Of a stretch of DNA of 64,000 nucleotides, positions 3,601-61,478 are shown in pieces. Origin of the DNA: a virus; the IMG/VR virus record IMGVR_UViG_3300043436_001870, positions 49,165-113,164 of that record; one strand, written 5' to 3'. Made by a program: the position numbers and the translations under genes. The stretch's first letter is position 1. Each line of letters begins with the position of its first letter. A model generated the notes under the pieces. That model searched no databases. It was given only the letters and a program-made list of their open reading frames with translations, and had not been told where the DNA came from.

Positions 3601-6365
3601 GTTGCAGGGAGTTTAGCTTTGATAGCATTGATCTCATCCACTATTCTCTGCTGTTCTTGGTAGTAACTTTCCTTCAGTTGAATTCTTGTATTCTTTGCTA
3701 TCCACTGAAGTCTGAGTTTATCCTTTACTTGTTGAGGATAGTTCTTTCTGCTAAGCTCATCCTCATATCTTGTAAGGGCATCTGTAAACAAGGTAGGCAT
3801 GACCTCTGATGTATAGAAGTCCTTTGAGGCTTCTCTAAACTCTCTCAGTCTCTGTGCTATTGCAATTTCCTCAGGGCTCTTTAGTTGACCGGCTGCATTA
3901 AAATTTGAATGCATTAGTCTATACTCCTTCCATAATACATCAAGACCTTCAGTTACGGCCTTGTTTTCTTCCTCACTGTTTCTATCTACAGTAGTACTAA
4001 GGTTTTGAATTCTAGCAAGCAAATCTTTTCTTCTTGCCTCAGCTATAGGACCAACTGTATCATTATCATCCTTCTTAAATATTTTATATCTTTCATAATA
4101 CTCTTTTACAAAAGGAGTATGAAAGTATGTTCTCATGAAAATATCCTTCTCTAACTTGAGACGGATTGCTTCTGAGTCATCACCTGTTTGCTGAGCTTTT
4201 AATACGGCATCTTCAATGTCTTTGTCCATCTTAGCTGTTGCAGCTCTATAATCCTTGTAAGGATTGATGATGGTTCTCACTTCTTTGTCACTTGTAGTGC
4301 CACTTGCATCTCTTGCTGGTCTGCGATCAACAAATGTAATCTTTGCACCAAATGCTGCTGGATTGCTTTGATTGTATCCTGCTCTATCAAGTATTGGTTT
4401 TACATCACTAATAAAAGCATTACCTCTACTCTGTGCAGTAGTCATGACATCAGTTACTCTGTTCTTTACCCACATTGCAAATCCAAATACAATTGGATCC
4501 TGGTTATAAATGTAACCTTCCAAGAATGAATTTAAAGCACTGGCATCACCAATGTTACCCTGCATCAAATAATCAATTTTCTCTTCAGAGAGATATGCTC
4601 CTTTCTTAAAGGAGATTCTCTTAAGCTTCTCATAGTTCTCAGCAGCTACACCAGTAAGCTTTTCTCCTTTTTCAATTCTTTCTTTAAATGACAAGAATGC
4701 TTTTAGCTGATCTGGTTCAAGACCCCAGTAATCTTTCATACGGAGAAGTCTAGTTTGTTCAGATAAACCAAGTTTGTCTATATCTTGCATCAACTTCTTG
4801 TACTTATCATCAATGTACTGCTGCATTGGTTTCAACTGAGTTTTAATTAACTCACTTGTACCATTGAAATATACCTTTCTTGTAGAGATCTTAGCTGTAT
4901 CTATCTGACCCTTGATATTCTCTACCAATTCAAAAATAGGATTCTCTGCCTCAATGTATCCATCTTGTTGAGCCTGTGCAAGAGTTTCCTTGAAATTATC
5001 AATGAAATTTTCCCATCCATTAAGAACATCATTGAAGTAGAATACAGTAGCAATATTATCCTTAGAATTTGGATCCTTTACAAGCCCAGTAATAGCACGG
5101 TTCATTTTAGTAGCCATACTTAATAGTCTGTCCAAACTCTGAACAAATGCTGTAGTGTGACTTTGTGCAGTACGTATCTCCTGCATTATTTTGTCAATCT
5201 CCTGGGTTATAAAAGTAGTTGCATCCTGAAATGGTGTAAGGTTTCTTTTAATTTCCTCAAGGTCATTTCTATTATACTTATCTTTGATAATCTCAGCAGC
5301 AGCTGCATAGTCCTTGTTCTTTTGAATAAGACCTAAGTACTTATTCATTACAACATACATCTCATTAGTAGACTCAATGAGTGCATTCTTTGGTAAGTTA
5401 TCTAACCCCTGTATTACTTCTTGTAGGTCAGTATAGTATTTGACTACATCTTCTTCAGACACAGCATCTAGATCAAGAATAAACTTGTCTAGAACAAGCA
5501 TGTCTGCTAGTTGATCTAATGTGGTGTCTACACTTAACTTCTCAATGGTAATCTTTTCCTCCTTGCCAAAAATCTTTCTTAAGATTTGGCGGATTGCATA
5601 TAGAATATCAGAGATGAACTTATTAAAGGCACTGTCTTTCTTCTCTACTGCAGCTTCAGTAAGAGCCATTACTAATAGCTCTTCCATAATAACAGGATCG
5701 TCCTCTGCTAATTCAGGGTAAGCTTGTTTAGCTGCCTCAAGAAGTTTTGGACCCATTGATGTCTGAAGTACCTGGCTAACCAGTTTATCAAACAATGGTT
5801 TATTAGATAACTGAATTGCTCTAATTACAGGGTGAGCAAACTCGTGGAATGCAGTCTTCTCTGTAATCAAATTAGGAATTACATATACTCTCCCCTGAAA
5901 GAAGAATGCTGGCTGACCTTTCCATGGATTGGCAGAACCTGCTGTAATTTCTGCAGCTGTCTCTGCTGTAATAACATCATAAGGAATACTTGTACTCTGA
6001 CTTAAAGCAAAAAGAAACTGAGTCATTCTTGCTGTTACCTTAAGACTACCCTGTGACTTTGCATCAAGAGTAATAGGATTAACAATTGTACTGTATGCTG
6101 GATCTGTATTTATTGATGTTTGAAATCCATTATACATAGCACCAAGTGGTACATTCTTTAATCCCGGAGCATGAATTGCTAATGTCTCAAGCATGTCATT
6201 AAACTGCTCAATTGTAGGAATCTCTATATCCTCACCAGCTTGTTTGTTCTGGTTAATTGTAAGATATGCACGTTTTACTTCCTGCTCTGCTATTTCAGCA
6301 AGACCAATTGATTTAGCATATTCAATAAGGGGATCAAGCACCCCAGGCATAGGACAAGCTACCAT
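645..6365 (-). CDS. Large virion cargo/ejection protein (1906 aa) with N-terminal zincin-like domain
   Basis: HEFAH at 5832-5846 followed by MEELL. Mostly helical, with a hydrophobic stretch (VGSLALLVLSISMIFGF) near the C-terminus. Adjacent to the virion RNAP gene. Confidence 0.8.
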   Translation of the reverse strand: MVACPMPGVLDPLIEYAKSIGLAEIAEQEVKRAYLTINQNKQAGEDIEIPTIEQFNDMLETLAIHAPGLKNVPLGAMYNGFQTSINTDPAYSTIVNPITLDAKSQGSLKVTARMTQFLFALSQSTSIPYDVITAETAAEITAGSANPWKGQPAFFFQGRVYVIPNLITEKTAFHEFAHPVIRAIQLSNKPLFDKLVSQVLQTSMGPKLLEAAKQAYPELAEDDPVIMEELLVMALTEAAVEKKDSAFNKFISDILYAIRQILRKIFGKEEKITIEKLSVDTTLDQLADMLVLDKFILDLDAVSEEDVVKYYTDLQEVIQGLDNLPKNALIESTNEMYVVMNKYLGLIQKNKDYAAAAEIIKDKYNRNDLEEIKRNLTPFQDATTFITQEIDKIMQEIRTAQSHTTAFVQSLDRLLSMATKMNRAITGLVKDPNSKDNIATVFYFNDVLNGWENFIDNFKETLAQAQQDGYIEAENPIFELVENIKGQIDTAKISTRKVYFNGTSELIKTQLKPMQQYIDDKYKKLMQDIDKLGLSEQTRLLRMKDYWGLEPDQLKAFLSFKERIEKGEKLTGVAAENYEKLKRISFKKGAYLSEEKIDYLMQGNIGDASALNSFLEGYIYNQDPIVFGFAMWVKNRVTDVMTTAQSRGNAFISDVKPILDRAGYNQSNPAAFGAKITFVDRRPARDASGTTSDKEVRTIINPYKDYRAATAKMDKDIEDAVLKAQQTGDDSEAIRLKLEKDIFMRTYFHTPFVKEYYERYKIFKKDDNDTVGPIAEARRKDLLARIQNLSTTVDRNSEEENKAVTEGLDVLWKEYRLMHSNFNAAGQLKSPEEIAIAQRLREFREASKDFYTSEVMPTLFTDALTRYEDELSRKNYPQQVKDKLRLQWIAKNTRIQLKESYYQEQQRIVDEINAIKAKLPATVAATIKIDELYEEMRQLLNPYRDEDMQPDGTAMSVNNIAAIKAVEEKIEKAKDALIGITGLTKLEQQELNDLFEIKSTRGLDQFESSRFSSLMDKRSLYGLSKADKQRIMELYNELSELRQSVPTVYYLDTANSIFSLIPIKTLIDTIGSKDITPDNADKILDPTFYNTVISKYPEVKAWFDENHTMKQTRDKTGAPTTKISRVRAWNVTRPSNAKHYETFTFTNSKGETETVLGVPSQQYTKRIVKDEYIVKEVTMLEALEQGDPTLATVDNYGRHLPRLDAPDNRFINQQFFDIKKNDKPLYDAILALSKYHLRFQEGSPSQSKLFLDIPRFMTSNYERNLNFLNADKKPENPISGWWRNVRNLFKGSSDDFDRGFNYEEQSMIMDGDLYDDQYAGIPIHGLSDLGVSDVSLDVVGGMLRYMLSAEKQRALIEMNPMARALQSVLHDPSNYVNIQKGISNSQIKARNIANNIKQKALWQQEQKDKSVRQRAIDNFIEREFEGVMAKGALGNDNDARWVTKTAQQIMKYSAFGYFALDIPSALKNDFSLRIQSMIEAAGGRYFNTANYGKGQLWATNAAMDLSMNLYTGKPKTHNEQLIMVFDAYQGRFEEKFGEQMSRSFAQDALGGLSWMTSFRKWTELNSTVSIFGAMMYHQTVERTVNGRTERIPYMDAWETVDGQIRIKEGVDPEWGVGGEKFKAFKNKVQGVTNNLAGSFAKFDYADADRYLLFKWIIAFKRWFVRMFLNRFQFRGSWRDPQYRFDAAVGDTVMGYHVESLRLLVRSIRQGSDYYRSRTDSEKIAVIKSLVDVGSLALLVLSISMIFGFDYDDPDKFEKLRKKSGPLPFIGTSETETDFKFMGWLSNHALMMAMGLKNEQQQWLTGGNYLEMLKFDSVAMHNTFDNYGKIIGGLTTSAMHSLFGTDDSKAYFDQREGPYVWMQEGGTDNPIEGYKPLTYLARSFGATGKSLDPAMAVTNFVKAQNWR

Positions 6366-9300: not shown

Positions 9301-12300
9301 GTAGCCTCATAAGCTTTAAATGCTGGCTTTGAATCATTCTTGAATGTATTTAGATGCGTCTTATAGATAGATGAGTTCTTTAAGTTTTCTGGACTATTCT
9401 TCTCAAAAGATCTTAGGACTTCTCTTTCATATACAAACTTAGTATAGAGAGCCTCAGCTGTCTTAGCATCATACAATGCAAATACAGATGACTCCACAGG
9501 TGCTACCTCGTTCTCCCACATAGAATCTTTAGAATACAATTCCTGTTGGAAAGTTGTAAGGATATCAGACTTACTTGCATACAAGATACCATTTTTTACT
9601 CTTGCTCCGGCACGAAGATATGTGACACCTTCAATAGGAACTTGTACTTCAAATCCTCTGTATACACCTTGTGTCTGATTGAATCTATAGTAATTAGATT
9701 GGAATACATAGTTAATCAAATCACTTCTGAATCTTTCAATGTACTCATCAGCATCAAGACCAGTCATCTTCTTATATGCAGATATAGGAGGCATACCCGA
9801 GATATCCTTATCAGTAAGGGATGCTATTTTTCTATTTACCTCCTTGCTATCTCTTAATGGGAATAGGTCACTGAATAAATCAAGGATGAAGTCTTGAATC
9901 TTGTAGGCAGACACCGGTGAATTTTCAATGATGTTCTGAATAGACTCGGGCTCAATACCATTAGCAAGGTCATCAATCTTAGCTAGTCTTAATCTAGCAT
10001 CAAGAAGTGTCTCTGTCTTAGTACGGTCAAAGTTCAAGTTCTGAGTAAGCTGAGTAATCTGTGAAGACATCTCACTTATTTCAAGGAAGTGAAGGAATAC
10101 AGAACGGTCATAATTATCAAAATCATTTGACTTATTAAGACGGCCTGCTAGGTCTGCTTTCTTAAACTCACCTATACCTTCTACAAGTCTATCAATTTCT
10201 TCAAAAACAAGTCTCTTACTAGGCTTCTTGTTCTTATACTTGGAGGTAGAATCCTTATCAGACTTCTCTTGGAAATCTGCTACAAGCCAGTTAAAGCCAT
10301 ACTTATTATCACCCTTATCAGCAAATAGTATACGGTCTCTTGCCTCATTTCTAAAGAAGTTACCTACATCACCATAGCCAATAGCTCTAGAGTACTGACT
10401 CTTAAACTTACGTTGCTCCTTAACAAAGTCACGTATGATTGGTTGAGACAAGAAGTATACGGCATCCTCAACAGGTACACCTGCCATGGTCATAAAGAGA
10501 AGACTGTTAATCAGCTCCTTGTTACCCTGAACATCAAAGATCCATGCTTTCTTAGCCACGTCAACAGAACCGTTGATCAATTGGCTGATAATGTCTGAGA
10601 TCTTGTTTAACTGTTCGGCATCATAATTTGCTGATAATGTTATACTATCACCTATCTTGTTGTGTGCAAACTTCAGTCTTTGTGGGTGCTCTACCGAACC
10701 TCTTTGAGTCTGAGTAATAATACGATTCTTTGTAAGAACCAAACCTGATCTACCAAAGATTGATTGAAATGTATTTACAACTGCAATGATACCTAGTACA
10801 TCCTTCCCTACGTTGTTTGACTGATGCTTATATAGGTTTCTTCCTACCTCAAATATTTCAGAAAGTCCTTTAGCCTTCTGTGTGCCTGCTCCTTTAGTTT
10901 CTTTAGCAATAGTCTCACCCAACGGTTCCATAGTGTCCGTTGTATTAGGTGTAATAAGACTGCTGAAGTTAAATGGATCAAGAAGAATATCCTTGATTAC
11001 ACCTAGAAGTTGGTTTTCAAGACCGGCCTTATCATCACCAAAGTTCATTACTGCAGAGGTCTTGTCTTCATAGTAAGTATCAATAGCTCTAAGTATATCT
11101 TTCTCCTCTTCTGTAAGAGTAGAGATGTCTAGATCTTCACCTAGTTGAACTAATTCTTTTATTTCATTGACTATAGCAGCATCAATTCCAAAACCAAGAA
11201 TATCAGATATTAAAGCATAGTCTTCCTCATTAACCTCTCTCTTTGTTTTGATGGTTGGGAAGAAGGTAAACATCTTATCAATGTCAAAGTCACCACCAGA
11301 CTTAGCAACAATCTCTGCAGGAAGAATAACAATGTTACCTGACTCCTCTGGAAGGAATTCAAACACCTCCATGACCTCCATAGAGTTTAGACCTTGAACT
11401 GGGATACGTACAGCAGCAGTTGTTACCATTGCTCTGTTGTCCCCTTGGTTCAACCACCACTCCTGCTTTATAAGATGATTTAATGCATCCAGTCTAGTTA
11501 CTCCATTCTCATTAGAGTATTTTACTACATCAGCATGATTTAGTAAGTTCTTAAATGGACCTTGTAAGGATATCTTGATCTTCATTGCTGATACAGATAT
11601 CACATTACCTTTCTTATCTAATTTAGGATTATAGAATGGTAGACCATTTGTACCACCATATCTTCCTATTTCTTCTTCTGTAGCTGTTCTTAATCTACCT
11701 TGTTCAAATCCTACTCCAGATACTTGTACTAATGATTCACCAGTTAATTTCTGATTAAGTATTCTCTTCTGAGCAATGTTTACAAGAGCTCTTTCAATTA
11801 CATCTGCTGATGGAGATAAGTCTAGATCTCTTAACAGAGTATCTGTAGCTTCATCTACACCTAAGAAGTCTACCTCATGCTCAGACAGTTTCTTACCTGG
11901 GCCAGACAATTCACTCTTAATGAATTCAATCAGACTTTTCTTAGTAGAACCTACCTGATCTCTGATTTTCTGTTTCTCAATCTCTACAAGACTGTCTAGA
12001 ATCTTTTCAAATCTAGATGCATATCTAGCAAACTTTGTAGAAAGCTTATCATTCTCAGCATTCCAGAGTCTGTATCTTTCATTCTTGTCTGCTATATTTG
12101 GTTTGTAATCTACAGGAACCTTATTTTCAAATAGACCCTGCTCAATTAATTTACGTAGCTGAGAAGAGAATGTAACTTTCTTTTTGTAATACTCAGCTAC
12201 TTCTAACTGATCCTTGAAGTAATCAAGGAAAACAGTATTCTTTGTAAACTGATAAGTTGGTGCATCAAATGCATAACCCTCAGTTGTTCTTTGATTATCA

Positions 12301-15300: not shown

Positions 15301-18008
15301 GACTGCTTATCTTTAATAAGAGTGGTTGTTGCTGCTGCTGTGTTGTATGCTTCATTTACCTTGTCAACATACTCAGAGAAAAGAGCATCGGTGCTATCTC
15401 CTAAAAGCTTGCTGATCATACTATTCATTACATAAGGAGAATCAGCAGCAGTTGACTCAATTGTCTTAGTCTTATTTAGTACATCAAAGTTAGCATTGGC
15501 TTGATCAAAAGTATAACCAGTTAGATTACCTACACGTAGTTTTTCATACAGCTCTCCAATGACTTTGTTGTCCCTAGGTGAAAGCTGTACTTCATCAACA
15601 GTTGTTCCTCCAAACAAGTTCTTAAGTAAATCAAGTAACCATTGGAAGAACTTATTACGTACAGGCTTGCCTTCTACAGGCTTACCTTTACCCAACATAA
15701 ATTCACGGAAATCCTCTGCAAGATACTCCTCTAGCTCTAGTAGAGTAGCATCAGCAAATGATACTGTTCTACCCATATATGACATGAATGTGCCGGTGCT
15801 CTTACGTGCCTCAGCATACATCTCATTTCTTTGGGCCTCAGTCATGAATGTCTGAGTAAACCCATGCCATGCTTCATGGTATAAATCAGTAAAGTCAGAA
15901 CCTTGGAAGAGAGTAATACCAGATAATGTCCAAGTTGCAACAGAACCTCTTGTATTAGAGTTTACTGCATTGAACATTACTTCATAAGGAATAACCTTAG
16001 CTAAAGGACTTCTCTCATACCATGCTTTAGCAGCATAGATCTGAGCAACAGTTGCTTTAACTGATTGTTGCTTATCAAGTTTGTTGAGACCTTTGGCCTT
16101 ACGGATAGTCTCTTCAAGCTTACCATTCTTTATGGCATTACCAATTACATTAGAATCAGCAGAACTTCTACCTCTTGGTTGTCTAGCCTTTGCCTTTGTA
16201 ACTGCTTCTTGTGCTGCAGCTTCATTGACTGGATTAGAAACAACTGGTGCAGTGCTTACAGGAGCTTGTGGTTGTTGTACTGTTACTGGATTCTTTAATA
16301 CTGTTTTACCAACCTCAGCTTTTACTGGACTGATTGTAAAGTATCCATTGTACTCACGTAGTTTACCATTAGAGTCAAAGAATCCTCTGATCTCTTTTGA
16401 AACTCTATCTAAATATTCTATTTGGTTCTCAGTAAAGTAATCTAAAACAATGGTACCATCCTGCTCAGACAAATTGAAGTTTGTGAAACTATTTTCATTA
16501 AAGTTCTTAGTAAGTATACTGTATTCTCTTGGAAATTTTTTTTTATCTGAAGAAATAGCATTTCTTAATTCTTGAAAAGAAAGAGCATCTGTTAATTTTT
16601 GAACAGCAGAGGAATCATTTAAGTCTATGTCTTTTCCATTATGAGTAATGTATAACTCAGACAACTTATAGTCAAAGTCTATCTTAAGACCTTTTCTTTC
16701 TTGTCCACCAAAGAATGAATTAATTAACTCATACTTTTCTTTTAGGGAAACTTTTACTCTTTTACCTTCAACATTTTTATATACGTCAGTGGTAAGAAGT
16801 TTAACAAGTTTATCTATATCAGTTTTGTCAGCAGGTTTTGTAAACACTTGTACTGACATATTACTTGCTCCAACCTTAAGTTGAATTGATTGTTTCTTAT
16901 CTTTTGTAACAAAATCTAATTTTAAAGGAACATTACCAAAATTGGCCTGTGAAACTTTGATACTAACTCCTTTTGCATCAGTATAAATACCAAGACGTGC
17001 ATCTGTAATAGAATAAACAATTGTATTACCTGGATTCTGATTCAAATATGCATAGCTTTTACTCAATGCATCAAATTGTGCAGTAAGTAATGCTTCAGCC
17101 TGCTCAATAGATATCTCACCTTCAGAATTATCTGATATTTCTTTTGGTGACTGTGTATACTCATTCTTTTGCCAGTTGTACTTACCATTGTCAAGTTTTC
17201 CTGGAATAGGTCTTGAACCATAATAAATTATACGTCCTTTATCTGATACATTAAACTGTTCATTAAAGTATAAAGGTGTACCATTGACATCTGTAATTAC
17301 AAATGCATACGGATTTTTATTTGCAGGCTGAGGGTATATCTGACCTTCAGGGATTCTCTTAATAGGTACAAGACTAATATGAATACCGCCAGTTACTCCA
17401 GGATACTCTATACCAGTTTCTCCTGGTTTAGGAGTAAGACCTTTTGCAGCCAAGAACTTAATAAAGTCTGTGTAATAAGCTAATGCTGCATCCTCTCCTA
17501 GACTGGCATTGCCTGGATCAGACAATGTATTAATTGTTGTAGCAAACGGATTAATAGGTCTAGGTCTTGTAAAGGGTACTCCTGCCTTGCTAATCTGAGC
17601 ACTTACTAAAGTTCTTTGTTCCTCAAAATTGATTTCAGAAATGATTTCTCCAAGATCTTTAGGAGGCTCATTGAGTCCTAGATAAGCTACTGTATTGTCA
17701 AGTCCTTTTTCTGGATTTGATAATTCATCTCTCAAGTCAAAAACCTCATCAAGACTTAATCCTTTTTTACGAATTTCCTTGCTTTTTGGTTGAGCAATCA
17801 TCTCTGGAAGAACAGCAGCTGTTAACATAGCATACTCAACAGCCAAGTTTTTATTTCCTGATTTAGCTAACACTCTGTCATAAATACTTTTTAGGTAGTT
17901 ATTCAGATTAAAAGTTTTTGCAGGATCATTAATAATCACTAATAAATCCTTTGCAATTTTTTTACGAAGGACCTGTATCTGCTCTGGGGTTCTTGTACAA
18001 TTGATCAT
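6366..18008 (-). CDS. Virion-packaged two-barrel RNA polymerase polyprotein (3880 aa): zincin-like domain, RNAP, SF1 helicase, C-terminal domain
   Basis: HEAWH (15864-15878) and LEEYLAEDF; ADGQGW (about 12655-12672); RIPVQG (about 11400); KSGGDFDIDK with DFDID at 11277-11291, as in the phi14:2 gp66-type crAss virion RNAP. Helicase motifs GYAGTGKS, DEAS, GDPAQL, HKSQGSTY, YVALSRA at about 7150-8570. Confidence 0.9.
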   Translation of the reverse strand: MINCTRTPEQIQVLRKKIAKDLLVIINDPAKTFNLNNYLKSIYDRVLAKSGNKNLAVEYAMLTAAVLPEMIAQPKSKEIRKKGLSLDEVFDLRDELSNPEKGLDNTVAYLGLNEPPKDLGEIISEINFEEQRTLVSAQISKAGVPFTRPRPINPFATTINTLSDPGNASLGEDAALAYYTDFIKFLAAKGLTPKPGETGIEYPGVTGGIHISLVPIKRIPEGQIYPQPANKNPYAFVITDVNGTPLYFNEQFNVSDKGRIIYYGSRPIPGKLDNGKYNWQKNEYTQSPKEISDNSEGEISIEQAEALLTAQFDALSKSYAYLNQNPGNTIVYSITDARLGIYTDAKGVSIKVSQANFGNVPLKLDFVTKDKKQSIQLKVGASNMSVQVFTKPADKTDIDKLVKLLTTDVYKNVEGKRVKVSLKEKYELINSFFGGQERKGLKIDFDYKLSELYITHNGKDIDLNDSSAVQKLTDALSFQELRNAISSDKKKFPREYSILTKNFNENSFTNFNLSEQDGTIVLDYFTENQIEYLDRVSKEIRGFFDSNGKLREYNGYFTISPVKAEVGKTVLKNPVTVQQPQAPVSTAPVVSNPVNEAAAQEAVTKAKARQPRGRSSADSNVIGNAIKNGKLEETIRKAKGLNKLDKQQSVKATVAQIYAAKAWYERSPLAKVIPYEVMFNAVNSNTRGSVATWTLSGITLFQGSDFTDLYHEAWHGFTQTFMTEAQRNEMYAEARKSTGTFMSYMGRTVSFADATLLELEEYLAEDFREFMLGKGKPVEGKPVRNKFFQWLLDLLKNLFGGTTVDEVQLSPRDNKVIGELYEKLRVGNLTGYTFDQANANFDVLNKTKTIESTAADSPYVMNSMISKLLGDSTDALFSEYVDKVNEAYNTAAATTTLIKDKQSLSVGYDYVREQMTAQLEYLLEERSKMDSNIEDTSDTDFAIDTIAAGLANFGDPYNLDNPVGLVKFHMENSTLMKSTIQAIEEEASITDRNVFEKRAGNEVPLANLAKPDVLFTIRSLKAYEKDGSVKLNILGLPDLNDFKKSWNRILNITEGANTDNEVYEKLKLAAEDYPIIKELMSKIGSPQNLDEASVNLWTDFTKILTMPRINLRMLELKQTDRFIQDVQGGFGRKETSYIVSPVEATGEFRKVGRRWNDNFAIADEGEYITKDIYGNNILNVNAVYRQFRNTKFTKDNIDDIYKFFDSIGIVLEDGKSAKADAYKSGLANYGKRTMDYLQAIYAYNKSKDGLLNPIKIQAPSDIYKNYKSDSAYKLPKKIEQVSVRQVLGGGSGIYNGLQKFQLKWSDDFADTTVNNANNQSQQERSLRSTISNQIGKWNRAKSITELTQEGVPNANDLSMSHLSPSRNPFVKSTIIYKSTFDENGVRRTYKDSSSGQQVPVSIQLNNMAGFMNQYTNTRNIMERSGIDASSADETTKLVGDFLMLTLYGATEATRHADKATTLLYKLLNGKLHYIDLKNFKTAGGKTEFADTLIGYLSSEFERIQKLKNGDPSATVTVGDKTYGEVAQDFVIFNGILKPETITNLKEQLATSPEVQTSEQFLKFVDGNLDLKNLLQTDITDYLTEQRQKNAKMLQESGILSNTGVINSLLEKLETGDSERSPKDVINGLTAERREKMITALIDGYTANDWIHKYEFSVMFYGDPALYKNVDDFFKRNAGIAATGDFARTGPAMTAYIDSKFAQVSYAATRGKTRASFGNTMNSAVMQDVVSKSIYYDTYLEAALKIEKDRLKKVNASPETVAKAEASIKKVFSKYTEMTEADGQGWISFDAYRALLMSLNKWTPNQEFLYNKIVKGEEVAMDDVLNFFPVKKMQYWGPLMGTGLPATAFHKYSLMPLIPSVIKNTPLENLHNKMVDQDIDYALMQSGSKVSTITKDGKADKFYNDNQRTTEGYAFDAPTYQFTKNTVFLDYFKDQLEVAEYYKKKVTFSSQLRKLIEQGLFENKVPVDYKPNIADKNERYRLWNAENDKLSTKFARYASRFEKILDSLVEIEKQKIRDQVGSTKKSLIEFIKSELSGPGKKLSEHEVDFLGVDEATDTLLRDLDLSPSADVIERALVNIAQKRILNQKLTGESLVQVSGVGFEQGRLRTATEEEIGRYGGTNGLPFYNPKLDKKGNVISVSAMKIKISLQGPFKNLLNHADVVKYSNENGVTRLDALNHLIKQEWWLNQGDNRAMVTTAAVRIPVQGLNSMEVMEVFEFLPEESGNIVILPAEIVAKSGGDFDIDKMFTFFPTIKTKREVNEEDYALISDILGFGIDAAIVNEIKELVQLGEDLDISTLTEEEKDILRAIDTYYEDKTSAVMNFGDDKAGLENQLLGVIKDILLDPFNFSSLITPNTTDTMEPLGETIAKETKGAGTQKAKGLSEIFEVGRNLYKHQSNNVGKDVLGIIAVVNTFQSIFGRSGLVLTKNRIITQTQRGSVEHPQRLKFAHNKIGDSITLSANYDAEQLNKISDIISQLINGSVDVAKKAWIFDVQGNKELINSLLFMTMAGVPVEDAVYFLSQPIIRDFVKEQRKFKSQYSRAIGYGDVGNFFRNEARDRILFADKGDNKYGFNWLVADFQEKSDKDSTSKYKNKKPSKRLVFEEIDRLVEGIGEFKKADLAGRLNKSNDFDNYDRSVFLHFLEISEMSSQITQLTQNLNFDRTKTETLLDARLRLAKIDDLANGIEPESIQNIIENSPVSAYKIQDFILDLFSDLFPLRDSKEVNRKIASLTDKDISGMPPISAYKKMTGLDADEYIERFRSDLINYVFQSNYYRFNQTQGVYRGFEVQVPIEGVTYLRAGARVKNGILYASKSDILTTFQQELYSKDSMWENEVAPVESSVFALYDAKTAEALYTKFVYEREVLRSFEKNSPENLKNSSIYKTHLNTFKNDSKPAFKAYEATLRDMALDNLNYHGHMFFGGRSYAKQVLEIGKENPSLLDKYEVLDRLEISTGGSSFVTNDGKKQEVTINNLKFTGDRPTPEELDLYTQQIEELADPNVIKVEDPIENERISKVFARFGLYALLQTGIDTTSAFSLIRAVPNDMFYGLLKSSYDKFLTDLKARPNTVLDEYTSLFNNQYRIDNKNVSNKLKNYAFNPEGIPSDIVRITDDTVSELETPLETEEETPGRIVTINGINLNLDKLDIPFTPNDQQLEALQQIADFIDNPNQDVFTLMGYAGTGKSSITKIALEYMRQRGLSINVTAPTHKAKKVIAKLAKTGAVTLQKLLGLGSSSKLTKTDLRKIKLTVQKESLYKPDVVIVDEASLVGDELFDALSDYAGEGKTKILFIGDPAQLNPVEEDKTTSKRSKAFDHPYKYELTKVERQAGSNPLGPILEDIRNNQKKDTSAIDAKTELSGNQGIVTTKTGVDFTRQAIAAFKSENFKNNRNFVRILSHSNERVEDFNQVVRNKIWFDKEVDTSKILEYVIGDIIMAYENVGYKKGGTFQINNSVDYEVLSVQAENKMTFNGLGGLELTGYTIQLQEIDGDGDIYEKFVLSRSTSQEIINLLAQKLVEYQKSLDAQVESGELRANQAFAIYSGLKDSIMTPFDVTDKKGRVVLKKSIDYGYAHTIHKSQGSTYTNVFVDTESIIEAPVSLEEKNQLKYVALSRATNIAYALNRNGQSGGQNIEWNGDFGSKKVVAGKISKSTNKKRVGDIQTLTLFELLQDTSTGVLTFNLLTSTDEKTKKVVNQFDKLTDQNAIQLSVDYPNTIFVRNEASTQSRDTAGTNVVYRAMGDNSLGIRTKSLPRVSQAKEGKIKDFNAKAAWTDATLKENKAMIDEDIAALMEKKESGVNLAFDSNGYGQYLIGYNEYFPAAADAQYADKTTIGVQTFLYLSQQLFEKFGYINPHYLTFGEGRIVVQYGAPVTDEEIAEFNNKCFK

Positions 18009-21000: not shown

Positions 21001-23116
21001 CAGAATTTTGGTCATAACCAAAAGCCTGAAGTAACTCATCATCACTCATTTGTTGGAATGATTCAATCTGATCAGTAAACATGTCAATGTAACCCTGATT
21101 CAGAAGAGTCTTAACATGTTTGAATATTGCATCATTTACTAAATCTTTTTCTTCTCTAACATCTCCAGCAGCTTCTGCTAAACTCATAAGATTAGCAAAG
21201 TCCTTTTGGTTTTGAGTATTTTCATAGATAGCATTAAAAAACTTTTTAGGATCAGCTTGGATTTCATTAGCTGTTTTTATTACTCTATCCTGAGTAGCTT
21301 TTCTTTGTGCAATCTTATCATCATAGGCTTTTTTGTCTTTGACTTTTTCATATACATCTTTACCAGCCTGTACTCCATATTGAAAAACTAGACTCTGAGG
21401 TACTTGAACCATACCTCCCATCAAGAAACCAGATAAGAATGTTTCAGCACCTTGAGCAGTAAATTGATCACCAATACCGGCTCCAAGCTTATCTAAGAAT
21501 AATGCTGTACCTGCTCTTTCAGGAGATGCAAATGTCTCAAGATAATAGTCAGTCATTGTCTTTGCAATAGACTCTTGATATGATTCTTGTAAACCTTCAG
21601 CAAGGTTAGCAGACATATATCTTATACCATTCTTAGCAAAATTCTGTGGTCTAAACTGGTTTATAATTCTTTTACCATTTTTCTTTGTAAACCAGTCTCT
21701 AGGATTTGCAGGATCAACAAACCCCTCATATTTTTTCTTGGTTTTCTTGCCGTAGTTTATAACAAGCTTACCTAATGAGGAATCACCATTTTCTCTAAAA
21801 GCCCTGAAACCTTTTAATGCCTTATCAAATACTAGCTTATTAGATACAAGGATCATTGGAAAGTTAGCCTGAGTAGTTGATACCCCAGCAAGTTTAGCTT
21901 GCTGCATAATCTTGTTAGCATCCTCACCTTCAGGTGCTCTACCATTTTCCTCTAGGTATTTATCATAGAGTTCCATAAAGACATCATTCTGAACCATACC
22001 ACCTTCAAGCCTTGATTCAGCAAGAGAAGTATTCATCATCTGAAGATCTCTAAAAAAAGAACCAAATGTCTTAGAGTGTCTTGCCCAGTCACTCATTGCA
22101 TCAAAGCCATTAGCTCCTGTTCTGATATTCTTAACTGTTTCTGCTGTTTGAGTAAATGGATTAACAAAATCTCCAAGACCTTTCCAAAATTTTCTAGCAT
22201 TATTTACATCTGACAAGCTGTTGGCTGCAGTTGCTGTAGAAGCAAGATCAGGTGCCTGTTGAGCAACTGTCTTACCTGCCTGAATCACATCCTCTACATT
22301 TTCAAGTGTCTTACCAGCTTTCATGAATTTTGCAAGATTAGAACCTGTTTTTGCAGCAGCAAGTCCACCTAATGCACCACCTGTTAAAGCCGTAGCTCCC
22401 CATAGAGCTACTTCTTCAAGAATTATATTACTCATTACACCAAAGGTGTAAGCAGAGTTTCCATATAGATTTACAGCAAATCCACCTACACCACCTCTAG
22501 AAGAGTTAGCAATGGACATCATTCTATTCATATCTCTTGCATACTTTGTGTCACCACTTGCATTGAAAGAGAATAGATCATCCCAGTTATTAAATGTCTG
22601 AGATAAACCAAGACCTGCTAATGACATCCATTGTGTACTTGCTCTAGACCAATCATCTGTCCAAGTACTATTAGCATTGTAGATAGCTTCATTATCTACA
22701 TAAGGGTTCCATCCTAGTTTTTTATACTGAGGATGGTTATAATATCTATCAAAGTTATTTTTATTAGGACCAGCACCAAAACCAATCTGTCTTACTCTAT
22801 CTGCTGCAGTACCGCTTGTAGGGATCCCACCAGGGCTCATAACAGTAGAGAGCATGTCTTTTACATAACTCTGGGTACCGTCAATCTGAGGATTAGTTTT
22901 CTCTGGAGTAAATGTAGCAAGACCTTTATTATTACCGGCTGCTATCTCAGCATTTTGTCTTAATGGAGTTGCACGGTTCATGAACACATTAGATGGACCA
23001 GTACCAAGTATCTTATTTACACTTTGCTCCATACCAGGAAGTATCTGATCAAACTGTTTCTTAGTTTGATCAAGTAAAGCCAAGTATTGATCAACAGGAT
23101 TTATTGCTTCTGCCAT
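18008..23116 (-). CDS. Large virion cargo/ejection protein (1702 aa) with Gly-rich hydrophobic segments and a degenerate zincin-like domain
   Basis: Hydrophobic Gly/Ala stretches (VALWGATALTGGALGGLAAA; FLSGFLMGGMV), the EGLQESYQE motif, coiled coils, and a YLMIHPLT...EAFVAEAFAS zincin-like remnant. TAATG overlap with the RNAP gene. Confidence 0.75.
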   Translation of the reverse strand: MAEAINPVDQYLALLDQTKKQFDQILPGMEQSVNKILGTGPSNVFMNRATPLRQNAEIAAGNNKGLATFTPEKTNPQIDGTQSYVKDMLSTVMSPGGIPTSGTAADRVRQIGFGAGPNKNNFDRYYNHPQYKKLGWNPYVDNEAIYNANSTWTDDWSRASTQWMSLAGLGLSQTFNNWDDLFSFNASGDTKYARDMNRMMSIANSSRGGVGGFAVNLYGNSAYTFGVMSNIILEEVALWGATALTGGALGGLAAAKTGSNLAKFMKAGKTLENVEDVIQAGKTVAQQAPDLASTATAANSLSDVNNARKFWKGLGDFVNPFTQTAETVKNIRTGANGFDAMSDWARHSKTFGSFFRDLQMMNTSLAESRLEGGMVQNDVFMELYDKYLEENGRAPEGEDANKIMQQAKLAGVSTTQANFPMILVSNKLVFDKALKGFRAFRENGDSSLGKLVINYGKKTKKKYEGFVDPANPRDWFTKKNGKRIINQFRPQNFAKNGIRYMSANLAEGLQESYQESIAKTMTDYYLETFASPERAGTALFLDKLGAGIGDQFTAQGAETFLSGFLMGGMVQVPQSLVFQYGVQAGKDVYEKVKDKKAYDDKIAQRKATQDRVIKTANEIQADPKKFFNAIYENTQNQKDFANLMSLAEAAGDVREEKDLVNDAIFKHVKTLLNQGYIDMFTDQIESFQQMSDDELLQAFGYDQNSGKADEFNNDMRGRLDSVLNKVNQIKANHEKYSTIRNPFNPKSGNPDEYEDWYGFEEARTLAIYNDYTYQQAAKRLSSIFNDAAGTKLGAAQSMQLTSLFLSDSKSAFGEDMIDTQINLLEREATGYLQGDEAQKKLGEERKKQAALLRNFKEDFANYRKEYSQAKKSVANAALRDEVKEDTKTQFTVQQGSTVEYTFKNGAKVTGTVTKKTSNKVTIEYTDASGKKVSKSVSIKAKKLKVTGGPQGQLPLDFEGNEIEAGLEQRRQELETRVRDYLSAISGIDAKSPELDKLVLQVIDYAELSENLSDAMNAVTFLNDPYNYSMAAKQFTQAAKDAREIAKTKMQKSLDEFKTRIGVNELIQKLFLKFNVFFSPDEIEALMKGDRVPSAFYKQNPKTNEFEEVEPTSNLYKEILNFLSEFESEQGFTLKGKVIAEAMAKGGYLIDDMIEADKAPSLNDILTGLGLQPGQDTYTISIVDVLKYILKKRIGSVPSRKMIQNLMTAVDPEKKMVISLTSPSGFSYTKETGITIDPRFATKDYSAQVDGKFYTSTLTYLMIHPLTQMIVSDNQSDPGFKAAIQNVMDAFKKYYEDNPDMRQKYGNYVTRMLTSQEAFVAEAFASQAGQEVLAIIPYKNTNRNLWQEFVKALVSFFKKQFGQAISIDETALTEVLGIVSNKLAGKGVTAPAGTTTAAGTAPASGIGIVSKPAVTRGTSLDSLKKDYPDLMATLLGQYSIATNKPGVANKEFATWFATSTDPIIDNIVDEYNTSNNFTEPGPAAPAPVPAGQPTPGPISIPTAEELAAEEEATPTDIKTIREQIAEATQEQLDDIVAKVNNQVLQAENLDYETYEKLLANRRNQLEPSGITFDSVNVMTILVMKDKSIYSADGNAIIVAKNDNNKTVVVRNLNLAGEDVILTEQQLREQVEYIKIKDVKTGEIDKVESPVEFTTEEKDLANQSAETATDSEEASKLSSQAFDDVENISEDEVNDEFDNSLDCK

Positions 23117-45935: not shown

Positions 45936-46520
45936 TTAATCTATTTCAAAGTCATTATATTTTGCTTTGTCTATGGTATTTCTAATCTTAAAGTAATCCC
46001 TAGACTTATTCTTCTTATACATCTTAACAACATCTGTAGTATTCTCTACAACAATGTATTTCTTAAAATCCTCTTTGTACCTATCTTTTACAGTTCTCTT
46101 GAACTCTCTTGATGCTGTAAAGGCCCAAATAGATCTTTCTCTTAATTTGTACTTTGCATAGTACGCACTAAAAAATATCTTACCAACATATCCATCCGTA
46201 TCCCAGTTCTTATGTTTTACAACAACTCCATACTTAATGGACTTGCCGTAGTCAATATTATCACTGGTCACATTCCCACAAGACCCTATAAAAACAAATC
46301 CAAGACCCTGTGGTAGCTCTATACCATCTCTATGCTCAATTACTTTATCCCATAGCAGTCCATTGAATTTATGGACTATCTTCTTAAGCTCTCTCTTTCC
46401 ATAGTGGCTATACTCTGGAAACTTTAATCTAAACTGCTCTAAATAGTCCTCATCAATTATATTGGTTTTCTTGACTCTGTATCTTGGAGCATTAAGATCT
46501 GGCTTTCTGAATTGCTGCAT
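45936..46520 (-). CDS. IHF/HU-like DNA-binding protein (crAss-type)
   Basis: Basic 194-aa protein with IVHKFNGLLWDKVIE.RDGIELP.GLGFVFIG and FTASREFKR, typical of the divergent IHF gene in crAss-like structural modules. Confidence 0.7.
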   Translation of the reverse strand: MQQFRKPDLNAPRYRVKKTNIIDEDYLEQFRLKFPEYSHYGKRELKKIVHKFNGLLWDKVIEHRDGIELPQGLGFVFIGSCGNVTSDNIDYGKSIKYGVVVKHKNWDTDGYVGKIFFSAYYAKYKLRERSIWAFTASREFKRTVKDRYKEDFKKYIVVENTTDVVKMYKKNKSRDYFKIRNTIDKAKYNDFEID

Positions 46521-46579
46521 AGGTCTTATTATAATTTACAAAAAAATATTGGAACTTCATTATAGATTTCAAATATAGT

Positions 46580-46609
46580 AAAATACCCCCAGGTCTTCAC
46601 CTGAGGGTA
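46580..46609 (-). terminator. Intrinsic terminator after the fibre block
   Basis: Minus strand TACCCTCAGGT-GAAG-ACCTGGGGGTA-TTTT: 11-bp stem with one G-U pair, then a U tract. Confidence 0.85.
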
Positions 46610-46648
46610 CCTTGTTTAGTCGTGTAAAACCAACAAACAACGACTTAA
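46580..46648 (-). ncRNA. Candidate 3'-UTR small RNA (stem-loop with UUGUUGGUUUU loop plus terminator)
   Basis: Stem AGTCGT(T)GT/ACACGACT at 46618-46645. The loop is complementary to TAAAACCAACA, found just upstream of the start codons at 54443 and 60908. Confidence 0.4.
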
Positions 46649-46650
46649 TA

Positions 46651-47595
46651 TTATGAACAGTTACCTAGATTAGTAACGGTTACAATGTAATCCTTGACAA
46701 GATGAAGTGATCCAGGAACCATACAAACAGTTAAAGTAGCTAAAGGTAATATTGTAGCAGATTGTCTAACATTATTACAGTCAATGTAATCTATAGGAAG
46801 AGATCTTTCTTTTTCACCATTAGCTATGGTATAATTTTGACAGCTACAACAAGCTTCACTTGCTATCTTTTGAATTATTGTAGAGGTTGAATTAGTTACA
46901 GTTGGTAAACTCTGTGAGCACACTCTATAAGAAGAACCAGTAAATGGTGTAGCTACTTGTTCTTCAGCTTGGTTGACACAATCATCATAGCTCAAAATAG
47001 AGTTTACACCACAGTTAGTTCCGCATGGACAGAACTCAATGTATCCTGTTGCATCATCTCCAGTAGGAGAAAGTCCAAATCTTACAGCAGCTGCAGTTGT
47101 ATAGTTCTCTCCATTAGCAGTTATATTAACTGAATCAACACTATCCCCATCCAGAACAACAGTTCCTAAAAAGCCTGTACCGCCACCAGTAGGTGTTATA
47201 ATAACACTAGGTGGTGATACATATCCTGATCCTGCATAGTCAACAACAATATTAGCAATACCTGATTTAGTACAAGAAATCTCATAAACATCGCATGTAT
47301 TAGTTTCTGTTCCAAACTTAAAAGTTACTCTTGATGGAATGTCATCTTCAGCAGCACAACATGGTTGAATATAACCATCTACAGTGTAATTAGCACAGAG
47401 TACAGGTTCAACAGGAAGGCACTCATCAAATGTCTCATCAATTGTAATCACAGTTGTCTTCTGTACTCCTATTACAGAAGCAGAAGAATCAATGTAAACA
47501 CAGAATGGAGGTGTTGGTGATATTGCATCACCTCTCACAGCTATTCTATGACAACCCTCATATTGAGGAGTATATGTAATTGATAATGATGCCAT
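46651..47595 (-). CDS. Cys-rich tail fibre/accessory protein (314 aa)
   Basis: Beta-rich; IVVDYAGSGYVSPPSV and VNITANGENYTTA repeats typical of phage tail proteins; many cysteines. Confidence 0.6.
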   Translation of the reverse strand: MASLSITYTPQYEGCHRIAVRGDAISPTPPFCVYIDSSASVIGVQKTTVITIDETFDECLPVEPVLCANYTVDGYIQPCCAAEDDIPSRVTFKFGTETNTCDVYEISCTKSGIANIVVDYAGSGYVSPPSVIITPTGGGTGFLGTVVLDGDSVDSVNITANGENYTTAAAVRFGLSPTGDDATGYIEFCPCGTNCGVNSILSYDDCVNQAEEQVATPFTGSSYRVCSQSLPTVTNSTSTIIQKIASEACCSCQNYTIANGEKERSLPIDYIDCNNVRQSATILPLATLTVCMVPGSLHLVKDYIVTVTNLGNCS

Positions 47596-54281: not shown

Positions 54282-54443
54282 TTACTTAGTTACATTAACT
54301 GAATTTACAGTTGGTGCTGTATCACTTTTTTTATCTGCTACAGGTTTTGTTGCACATTTTGAACAACCTTGTTTACCATTAGGTAAGATTCTTTTTTGAC
54401 ATCCGCATGTCATTGTTGCTCCACAATTTGCACATTTTGCCAT
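54282..54443 (-). CDS. Small Cys-rich protein (53 aa, CxxC-CxC-CxxC)
   Basis: MAKCANCGATMTCGCQKRILPNGKQGCSKCATKPVADKKSDTAPTVNSVNVTK*. Fills the gap between two genes; not in the ORF track. Confidence 0.8.
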   Translation of the reverse strand: MAKCANCGATMTCGCQKRILPNGKQGCSKCATKPVADKKSDTAPTVNSVNVTK

Positions 54444-54464
54444 ATTTATGTTGGTTTTAAATTA

Positions 54465-59891: not shown

Positions 59892-60908
59892 TCATTGATT
59901 CCAATACTTCTCAACTTTTTTTATCAAGTTTACAAGTATTTCCTCATTTAGTGGATTCTTTAAGTATTCTACAACATCTGCTGGTGTTCTTCCCATCAAT
60001 GCTGAAGACTGTGAGTCATAGATAAATCCATCTGCTTTGGTCAAAATAAACTTGTAGTAAGTAGCATCTTTAACCATTGCACGGATCTTCAATGTCTCCA
60101 TATCCTTATCAGCCGTGTCAAGGAACATCTGAGCAGCACGATTTGCATTCTTCTCAGAACCCTCTCCATTAATGAAGGTATCCATGTTATCATAGAGTAC
60201 ATCATTAGGAGTTGTCTTTTTGTACTGCACACTTGCAGTATCTACAACCTTAGCAATATAGAACAACTTATTTGTGTTCTTATTGAATAATTTCTCCAAC
60301 TCAGCAAGAGCTTTGTTACGAAGTTTCTTACTTTCAGTTTTAGTTGATACAGTTTCTTCAAACTTATCAAGGTAAAACTTAGGTGCCTTTGGCTTCATTC
60401 TAGCCTCTTCATAACTTCTACATACAATTGAAAATCCTCCAGCCTCAATTGCATAGAGCTTTATCAAATCATATGGATCTTTCTGTGGCTCCAAAAAGAG
60501 TGGTTCATTACCACATCTAATTGTAATCTTGCTCCAGAACTCATCATTATCCGGTCTGAGAAGTTTAACCTTATTCCAAAACTCTTTGTCATCAGTATCA
60601 ATAACATTTGCAGCAAGTTCTCTTTCAAGTTGTGCTACTATTGTTCTAATCTCCTTGACCTTAGCTTCTCTGTCTTCTTGATCCCTAATTAGTTTTACCT
60701 CAGGGGCAAACTCATTAAGTCCGGTTACATACCGTTTAATACCATTGAGCTCAATACATGCTAGTTGTTCTTCTTGGAAGACACCATCATATAGAGCAAG
60801 GCCATATTGTTCAAGGCCCATGTTTTGCACCTTACTATTAAAGTAAGGCTTGATCATAATAGGTCCACGCTTAATACCTGGATCTGATTCAATTAATGTA
60901 AAACTCAT
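59892..60908 (-). CDS. Conserved capsid-module protein (338 aa), function unknown
   Basis: Long ORF downstream of the MCP with RYVTGL and EYLKNPLNEEI motifs; preceded by TAAAACCAACA. Confidence 0.7.
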   Translation of the reverse strand: MSFTLIESDPGIKRGPIMIKPYFNSKVQNMGLEQYGLALYDGVFQEEQLACIELNGIKRYVTGLNEFAPEVKLIRDQEDREAKVKEIRTIVAQLERELAANVIDTDDKEFWNKVKLLRPDNDEFWSKITIRCGNEPLFLEPQKDPYDLIKLYAIEAGGFSIVCRSYEEARMKPKAPKFYLDKFEETVSTKTESKKLRNKALAELEKLFNKNTNKLFYIAKVVDTASVQYKKTTPNDVLYDNMDTFINGEGSEKNANRAAQMFLDTADKDMETLKIRAMVKDATYYKFILTKADGFIYDSQSSALMGRTPADVVEYLKNPLNEEILVNLIKKVEKYWNQ

Positions 60909-60932
60909 GTTGTGTTGGTTTTAAAAACAAAT

Positions 60933-61409
60933 TTAAGAAAGTTGTGGGATTACTGTATAAAAAAATGATAGAGTATCAATATCCCCTGTAGTAGCAATAT
61001 TATTAACACGCACTCCAACTTTACCATCTATTAATGCTGATGCCGTAAGTATTTCTAAAACAGGCATACCATCATCAAATGATCCAAGTGTAAGTTGAAC
61101 AAATGCTGGAGTACTAACTCCTGTAGGCGTTGTGTAAAGAGCTTCATTGAAAACCAAATCAAAGCTTTCTCTACCACCAGGACTAATACCTAAATCATCA
61201 ATTGTTACTATACCACAAGGCTTAGATAAAAGTAAGAAATTATCAGTAGTAAAAGATACTTCATCAGTAGCAATCTCATTACCAATGTACAATGCTGCAC
61301 GGTTTAGGTGTGCCATACGTGCCAAGGCAGCTTCTCCTTCAGATGAAAATTTTTGGATCTGATCAGGAGATGTAGGAAGAACTTTTTTAAGAGGAGGAAT
61401 ATTTGCCAT
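60933..61409 (-). CDS. Probable capsid decoration / head-fibre protein (158 aa; start revised to MANIPP)
   Basis: The longer track start at 61466 runs through the MCP terminator, whereas the ATG at 61409 has an A-rich context. ALARMAHLN followed by a beta-rich domain. Confidence 0.6.
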   Translation of the reverse strand: MANIPPLKKVLPTSPDQIQKFSSEGEAALARMAHLNRAALYIGNEIATDEVSFTTDNFLLLSKPCGIVTIDDLGISPGGRESFDLVFNEALYTTPTGVSTPAFVQLTLGSFDDGMPVLEILTASALIDGKVGVRVNNIATTGDIDTLSFFYTVIPQLS

Positions 61410-61433
61410 TTTATTTTTTGATTTAAAAGTAAA

Positions 61434-61464
61434 TAAAAAAAGGGAGGAGTTGTAGCTCCTCCCC
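61434..61464 (-). terminator. Intrinsic terminator after the major capsid gene
   Basis: GGGAGGAG-CTACAA-CTCCTCCC-TTTTTTT on the minus strand. Confidence 0.9.
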
Positions 61465-61478
61465 ATTTCTATGATTCT

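Follow-up and report, generated by a model that had tools for sequence, protein, structure and literature searches.

A hairpin lying between a structural gene and its transcription terminator is predicted to form a structured RNA not described before, which is carried by environmental crAss-like phages. The stem of this hairpin differs from one lineage to another, whereas its loop holds an invariant core, GUUGGUUU, which is antisense to a core word, AAACCAAC, that is enriched directly upstream of start codons and is retained there in orthologous genes. We give about even chances to the reading that the hairpin is a 3′-end regulatory RNA, which would pair with the start regions of these genes.

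The stretch of DNA analysed, hereafter the window, comprises 64,000 nucleotides (bases 49165-113164 of a 113,164-bp phage record) with a G+C content of 36%, and its minus strand carries nearly all of its genes. The genome (G000) is that of a crAss-like phage by its layout, in which giant ORFs of 1083-3880 aa follow one another in a run and are accompanied by a capsid-like 540-aa gene (phrog_11589). The GenBank capsid nearest to that of the window belongs to Leptolyngbya phage Lbo-JY46, at 28.5% identity, while neither a megablast of the hairpin region nor a tblastn of the neighbouring 194-aa protein against GenBank phages gave a match. The 113-kb genome also contains 16 copies of an 11-mer, TCTTGTAGRGA, on both strands and mostly within genes, with window copies at 4878, 13007, 19102, 27781 and 41253 on the plus strand and at 11991 and 38620 on the minus strand, and nine more outside the window.

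Hairpin 1 (46618-46645, minus strand) begins 6 nt past the stop codon (46651) of a 314-aa Cys-rich structural gene with weak baseplate/Hc2 PHROG matches (46651-47595, minus strand). It is formed by an 8-bp stem with one bulged U, the arms AGUCGU(U)GU and ACACGACU enclosing the 11-nt loop UUGUUGGUUUU (46626-46636, minus strand). After a spacer of a few nucleotides an intrinsic terminator follows (46580-46613, minus strand), consisting of a GC-rich stem of 15 pairs, 6 of them G-C, a 4-nt loop and the U-run UAUUUU; across all relatives this terminator is kept in position, not in sequence. The 83-nt unit composed of both elements folds with -29.6 kcal/mol (z = -4.8), a value reached by none of 200 shuffled sequences, and its predicted fold is exactly hairpin 1 plus the terminator. 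The minus-strand hairpin and terminator that the earlier note had placed after the fibre block are thus both found. Since hairpin 1 and the terminator do not overlap in this fold, the unit does not act as a switch between alternative structures. When region 46450-46750 was scanned against Rfam 15 by cmscan with an E-value limit of 10, four sub-threshold matches were obtained, none of them spanning the hairpin and two touching its edge or the terminator region. A literature search by sequence word and by topic gave nothing on the hairpin/word element.

Past the terminator, TATATTTG (46570-46577, minus strand) matches TAnnTTTG, the Bacteroidota -7 promoter box, and may serve as promoter for the block that follows, composed of the 194-, 221- and 301-aa genes and giant genes. 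The same arrangement of a box after the terminator is present in relatives, and no TAnnTTTG box is found in the window sequence directly upstream of hairpin 1. Directly before the ATG of the 194-aa gene, there is a run, TTTTTTTGTAAATTATAAT (46521-46550, minus strand), which stands nearly unchanged ahead of the homologous 188-aa gene in distant relatives (L082, L078); this run may be a promoter or leader element. In G014, TTTGTA and TGTAAA are also enriched ahead of start codons.

Relatives were retrieved from IMG/VR and JGI metagenomes with a profile for the 314-aa protein, built from 17 of its homologues (21 are recorded); IMG/VR scans with the single protein gave no relatives. Lake samples, those underlying Ga0315909, Ga0315907, Ga0315905 and Ga0181352, were sources of these relatives. 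Beyond the window the hairpin is present in ten lineages, nine of which were reached through the 314-aa protein (homologues at 34-75% identity and lower) and the tenth (L402/G016) through a variant loop. In every contig that extends past the 314-aa homologue, the stop codon is followed by the hairpin and this by a GC-rich terminator. The loop core is constant in the window and the ten lineages, while the stems differ and have 6-9 bp. Conservation of the loop goes past the paired core, with UUU ahead of GUUGGUUU in lineages found independently. The nearest relatives (86% and 75% identity) are known from Logan assemblies only and stand outside the lineage comparison. A covariance model finds exactly one copy of the hairpin per genome and gives 39 bits to that of the window; its second match in the window, at 21700-21734 (E = 0.7), was rejected as another copy, as it is located inside coding sequence. 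In crAss001 and phi14:2, the nearest cultured Crassvirales, the model gives only spurious matches within coding sequence and the element is absent. The closest cultured relative by capsid protein is Lbo-JY46, reported on a cyanobacterium, and no other cultured phage was found to carry a syntenic hairpin; its A-U stem has 7 bp, its loop reads UUUGUUGGUUG, and a terminator comes after it (GenBank PP438436, ~91605-91645; L295 ~16290-16340).

A strict search pattern, AAGTN{4,5}TTTGTTGGTTT, was run on IMG/VR viral contigs and on bacterial genomes. It matches at least 119 stretches of IMG/VR, of which 45 form the stem, 42 of these with a downstream T-run; the bacterial genomes contain 120 matches, with a stem in 6 and a terminator in none. 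In the viral contigs a stop codon precedes the hairpin by 1-13 nt, and within a few nucleotides of its end a strong terminator follows. The genes downstream are constant, an optional gene of ~407 aa being followed by genes of 188/194, 221 and ~300 aa, and the hairpin occupies one syntenic site, where the tail block gives way to the 188/194-, 221- and 301-aa genes together with the giant genes.

The stems of the hairpin covary. Native pairs of arms have a mean of -6.95 kcal/mol, versus -2.65 kcal/mol for chimeric pairs in which the 3′ arms were swapped between lineages, and none of 20000 random re-pairings of the arms matches the native mean, a statistic that ignores relatedness. Twelve of the 110 chimeras, made between close relatives, fold as well as a native hairpin. 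In the structure alignment the proportion of paired cells is 51% and does not exceed that of the controls, the stems being out of phase in an alignment made by flanks and loop. A constrained fold of each sequence gives nine G·U pairs and no A·C mismatch on the gene strand, and for the six hairpins with G·U pairs the fold of the reverse strand loses 3-8 kcal/mol in stability. Because the nine G·U pairs suit the gene strand only, the hairpin is a structure of the sense-strand RNA. The alternative offered in the earlier note, a plus-strand transcript that displays the motif as a decoy for an RNA-binding regulator, is disfavoured by the same data, since each of the nine G·U pairs would become an A·C mismatch in the weaker antisense fold.

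The counterpart of the loop is found at start codons. The 11-mer TAAAACCAACA occurs in five exact copies in the full genome, four of which are located 2-5 nt upstream of an ATG, the fifth (46625-46635, plus strand) being the hairpin loop in antisense. In agreement with the earlier note, one copy (54449-54459, minus strand) is placed 5 nt upstream of the ATG of a candidate target encoding a 53-aa Cys-rich protein (MAKCANCG...; 54282-54443, minus strand) and another (60913-60923, minus strand) 4 nt upstream of the ATG of a second candidate target, the 338-aa gene (59892-60908, minus strand), where pairing can be extended over CAAC with a 2-nt bulge. The two copies outside the window belong to genes of 90 and 134 aa, whose ATGs they precede by 2 and 3 nt, and a 157-aa gene has TTAAAACCAAC 8 nt upstream of its ATG. 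The full-genome scan that had been recommended gave the 8-mer core in the -25..-1 region of 5 G000 genes versus 0.16 expected (P = 7e-7). In the six genomes G000-G005, AAACCAAC is found in the -25..-1 region of 3-7 genes per genome, versus 0.05-0.18 expected, with Poisson P values from 2e-5 to 4e-11. Outside start regions, the intergenic occurrences of AAACCAAC are the loop antisense, plus one more at 12075 in G004. The start-region word is a real signal and not a product of chance.

The word of the 338-aa gene lies 4 nt after a TAAATTTG box (60928-60935, minus strand) and, because of this short distance, probably forms the extreme 5′ terminus of the late mRNA, whose other end is the hairpin. 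A terminator search of the minus strand from 64000 to 44500 detected just two strong ones, that adjoining the hairpin and another at 61441-61464 (minus strand), directly 3′ of the capsid-like 540-aa gene. With no other strong minus-strand terminator between, the 338-aa gene and the hairpin probably delimit a single transcription unit of ~14 kb. The terminator at 61441-61464 overlaps the first ATG of a 177-aa ORF (60933-61466), whose real start is probably located more downstream.

Promoter boxes near the word bring in a further explanation, by which the AAACCAAC/GTTGGTTT duplex would be recognized as DNA, in either orientation, by a phage DNA-binding regulator, or the hairpin would act as single-stranded DNA, for instance at an origin, in packaging or as a hairpin promoter. 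A TAnnTTTG box is present 3-25 nt upstream in 9 of the 25 motif-bearing start regions, versus a box at up to 60 nt in about 10% of genes overall, and the single copy of the hairpin per genome would also suit a DNA element. However, the box is missing at most motif sites and the spacing of the word is fixed to the ATG, not to the promoter. The stem, moreover, covaries with G·U (G·T) pairs that work on the gene strand only, and the hairpin is embedded in a 3′ UTR directly ahead of a terminator. We regard an action at the DNA level as very improbable.

The distance from the word to the ATG is tightly constrained to 0-14 nt, which resembles the placement of a ribosome-binding signal, and the family of the word provides the most enriched C- or G-containing hexamers before start codons in G002, G004 and G014. 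Both features would be expected if AAACCAAC were a translation enhancer read by a third partner, either the host ribosome or a phage RNA-binding protein, with the loop mimicking or competing with that partner, for example as an rRNA mimic or a titrating decoy. The ribosomal RNAs give no sign of it: in the 16S and 23S rRNA of five Bacteroidota (Flavobacterium, Cyclobacteriaceae, Chryseobacterium, Chitinophagaceae and Salinimicrobium), a set that may not include the host of the phage, neither GUUGGUUU, nor a conserved 7-mer in either orientation, nor the complement of either word was found. In a Chitinophagaceae MAG (G009, via L189) there are 68 AAACCAAC-N(0-8)-ATG sites versus 26 for the reversed control, but among 20 sites sampled just 5 lead into an ORF of 100 codons or more, and no more than 2-3 resemble genuine starts. 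Accordingly, the word was rejected as a general start signal of the host. Many of the G009 sites have one-base spacers, and most of those sampled are not gene starts. A third partner that reads the word seems to us improbable.

The direct link between loop and word rests on their complementarity. When duplexes between the loop and start regions were computed, the five G000 targets were the top five of 130 genes, with energies of -11.5 to -13.6 kcal/mol versus a median of -5.3 kcal/mol, and cofolding of the loop with these targets gives a net gain of -7 to -11 kcal/mol. According to an accessibility computation, three of the five start regions are not unusually open. The probability that two invariant 8-mers are exact complements by chance is, by our estimate, of the order of 1e-4. 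The seed guaranteed across genomes amounts to only 8-9 AU-rich pairs. Departures from the exact pair were found in several genomes. G011 has the hairpin, one exact 8-mer in a start region and AACCAA-type words in three or four, while the start regions of G014 have the 7-nt AAACCAA only, its form of the word being AAAACCAAA, so that pairing with the loop extends over 7 nt only. In G012 and Lbo-JY46 the syntenic hairpin is present and start regions are not enriched in the 8-mer. Co-variation of the flanks of loop and word was not seen in clade B, in which an A precedes GUUGGUUU in the loops, yet the words mostly have an A after them, nor in G016, which combines the loop GGUUGGUUUA with start regions UAAACCAACA. 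The covariation check proposed earlier had, then, a divided result, with covarying stems and an invariant loop core on one side and flanks that do not follow each other on the other. As the hairpin has a wider range than the word and the flanks do not co-vary, the loop may have an older role at the transcript 3′ end, the word having been recruited later in one clade.

Such a role is the core of an alternative in which the hairpin is an element associated with the 3′ end or the terminator and has another job, either as a protein site for mRNA stability or processing or for read-through of the terminator into the cargo/virion-RNAP block in a nut/put-like manner, the complementarity with the word being secondary or a later acquisition of one clade. 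The constant placement of the hairpin just past a stop, before a terminator and at one syntenic boundary fits this explanation, as do its persistence in G012 and Lbo-JY46 without the 8-mer start word and the conservation of UUU outside the paired core. Nevertheless, the explanation does not account for the exact complementarity of two invariant 8-mers, and the separation of the hairpin from the terminator deprives it of a switch between alternative structures. We judge it unlikely, though deserving serious consideration. For the small RNA controlling translation that the earlier note had suggested, the outcome is mixed: a conserved gene-strand RNA capped by a terminator, with a loop complementary to an enriched start word kept in orthologues, agrees with that proposal, while the wider distribution of the hairpin relative to the 8-mer word (G011, G012 and Lbo-JY46) does not.

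Retention of the word differs among gene families. In the 338-aa, small Cys and 123-aa families, AAACCAAC is kept in 5 of 6 genomes each; for the ~410-aa family the count is 3 of 6, with 2 variants in addition, and in the 90-, 134- and 274-aa families retention is limited to part of the genomes. The small Cys protein (50-75 aa), with a CxxC...C.C pattern (MxKCxNCGAxxxCGCQ), is encoded in all six genomes and always has the start-region word or a one-base variant upstream. The 338-aa protein is far more conserved than its neighbours, with 3857 homologues at ~70% identity, nearly all of 337-340 aa, as compared with the 21 homologues of the 314-aa protein. Sequence searches of the target proteins in Pfam, PHROGs and PDB gave no relatives. 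The structure model of the 338-aa protein shows no convincing known fold apart from its C-terminal tail, the last ~62 residues of which resemble in the model the RecA C-terminal domain (Z 9.9, rmsd 1.9).

Returning to pairing with start regions as the function of the hairpin, which would make it a regulator of a few genes of the head module and some others, we propose the following model. The late structural transcript would terminate, over its final ~70 nt, in a two-hairpin module, hairpin 1 and then the terminator, in which hairpin 1 would present UUUGUUGGUUUUA in an open loop. The loop would pair with (U)AAAACCAACA(A), located 2-8 nt upstream of the AUG in the 338-, 53-, 90-, 134- and 157-aa genes, hiding the ribosome landing site of these Shine-Dalgarno-less mRNAs. 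The most likely effect would be a lower translation of the targets while the late transcript builds up, either whole or as a stable 3′ fragment. Two of the five candidate targets are on the opposite, early/middle strand, and so the action would be at least partly in trans. Transcription and stability of the module, pairing in the cell and repression are what we infer from the sequence. The same duplex could have the opposite sign: loop:word pairing would then be a phage-private stand-in for Shine-Dalgarno:anti-Shine-Dalgarno pairing where host ribosomes make no use of that contact, and the hairpin RNA, free or as the mRNA 3′ end, would tether AAACCAAC-tagged start regions and thereby promote their translation or protect them, for instance through recruitment of ribosomes or through closure of the mRNA from 5′ to 3′. 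The ~14-kb transcript that ends in the hairpin appears to begin with the word of the 338-aa gene. Activation instead of repression seems to us a most doubtful outcome.

Among known systems, repression by pairing resembles the action of bacterial 3′UTR-derived base-pairing sRNAs of the CpxQ, SroC and DapZ type. As in these, the hairpin closes a coding transcript on its 3′ side and uses the intrinsic terminator of that transcript, here a GC-rich stem-loop with a U-run formed by the second hairpin only, a layout common to all relatives. The likeness extends to a conserved and accessible single-stranded seed just upstream of the terminator, represented by the invariant GUUGGUUU between varying stems, and to the complementarity of this seed to several mRNAs, that is, to five start regions in G000 and to 3-7 in G001-G005. 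It differs from them in being encoded by a phage, aimed at the own genes of the phage, and in having its seed in a hairpin loop. We know of no Hfq-type context in Bacteroidota. GibS of Bacteroides thetaiotaomicron pairs with the start regions of Shine-Dalgarno-less mRNAs and represses them (PMC7366714). By analogy, GibS may be taken as a precedent for start-region repression in Bacteroidota. Unlike the phage hairpin, it is encoded by the host in an intergenic region, has a promoter of its own and pairs through a long unstructured seed of 30-50 nt at its 5′ end, and the two share no similarity in sequence or structure.

Phage RNAs provide two further terms of comparison. The c4 antisense RNA of P1/P7 and the CI RNA of P4 are transcribed together with their targets and pair with short repeated words of phage mRNAs; they serve immunity and lysogeny in enterobacterial temperate phages, act close to the 5′ end and are excised by RNase P or E. 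Like the hairpin described here, they use exposed loops or segments to pair with words on phage mRNAs. The hairpin, in contrast, comes from a lytic crAss-like phage, where its setting is the late structural genes, and has no homology to them, as no Rfam match was found; none of the curated families of Rfam 15, which include phage C4 and Bacteroidota sRNAs, accommodates it. The lambda nut/boxB and HK022 put sites are promoter-proximal antitermination RNAs that act on RNA polymerase, and they share with our element the form of a short conserved hairpin in nascent RNA upstream of a terminator that separates blocks. Instead of being promoter-proximal, the hairpin described here ends a unit of ~14 kb, beyond its final stop codon, and one has to go upstream to about 60930 for the nearest promoter-like box and to 61441 for the nearest strong terminator. 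Antitermination, moreover, leaves unexplained the mirroring of the loop in start regions.

If the pairing is functional, the hairpin would found an RNA family of environmental crAss-like phages that is absent from Rfam and from the literature searched. This hairpin family is possibly common, given the at least 42 stem-forming viral contigs with a downstream T-run recovered by the strict pattern and the 3857 homologues of the most conserved target protein. The word AAACCAAC is in itself an aid to annotation, as it marks the true start codons of head-module genes. A functional pairing would also mean that these phages possess a post-transcriptional regulon composed of one hairpin and a fixed 8-nt word, operating in hosts that do not use Shine-Dalgarno sequences, and the hairpin/word pair would offer a compact handle on start-site choice and regulation in Bacteroidota-type systems.
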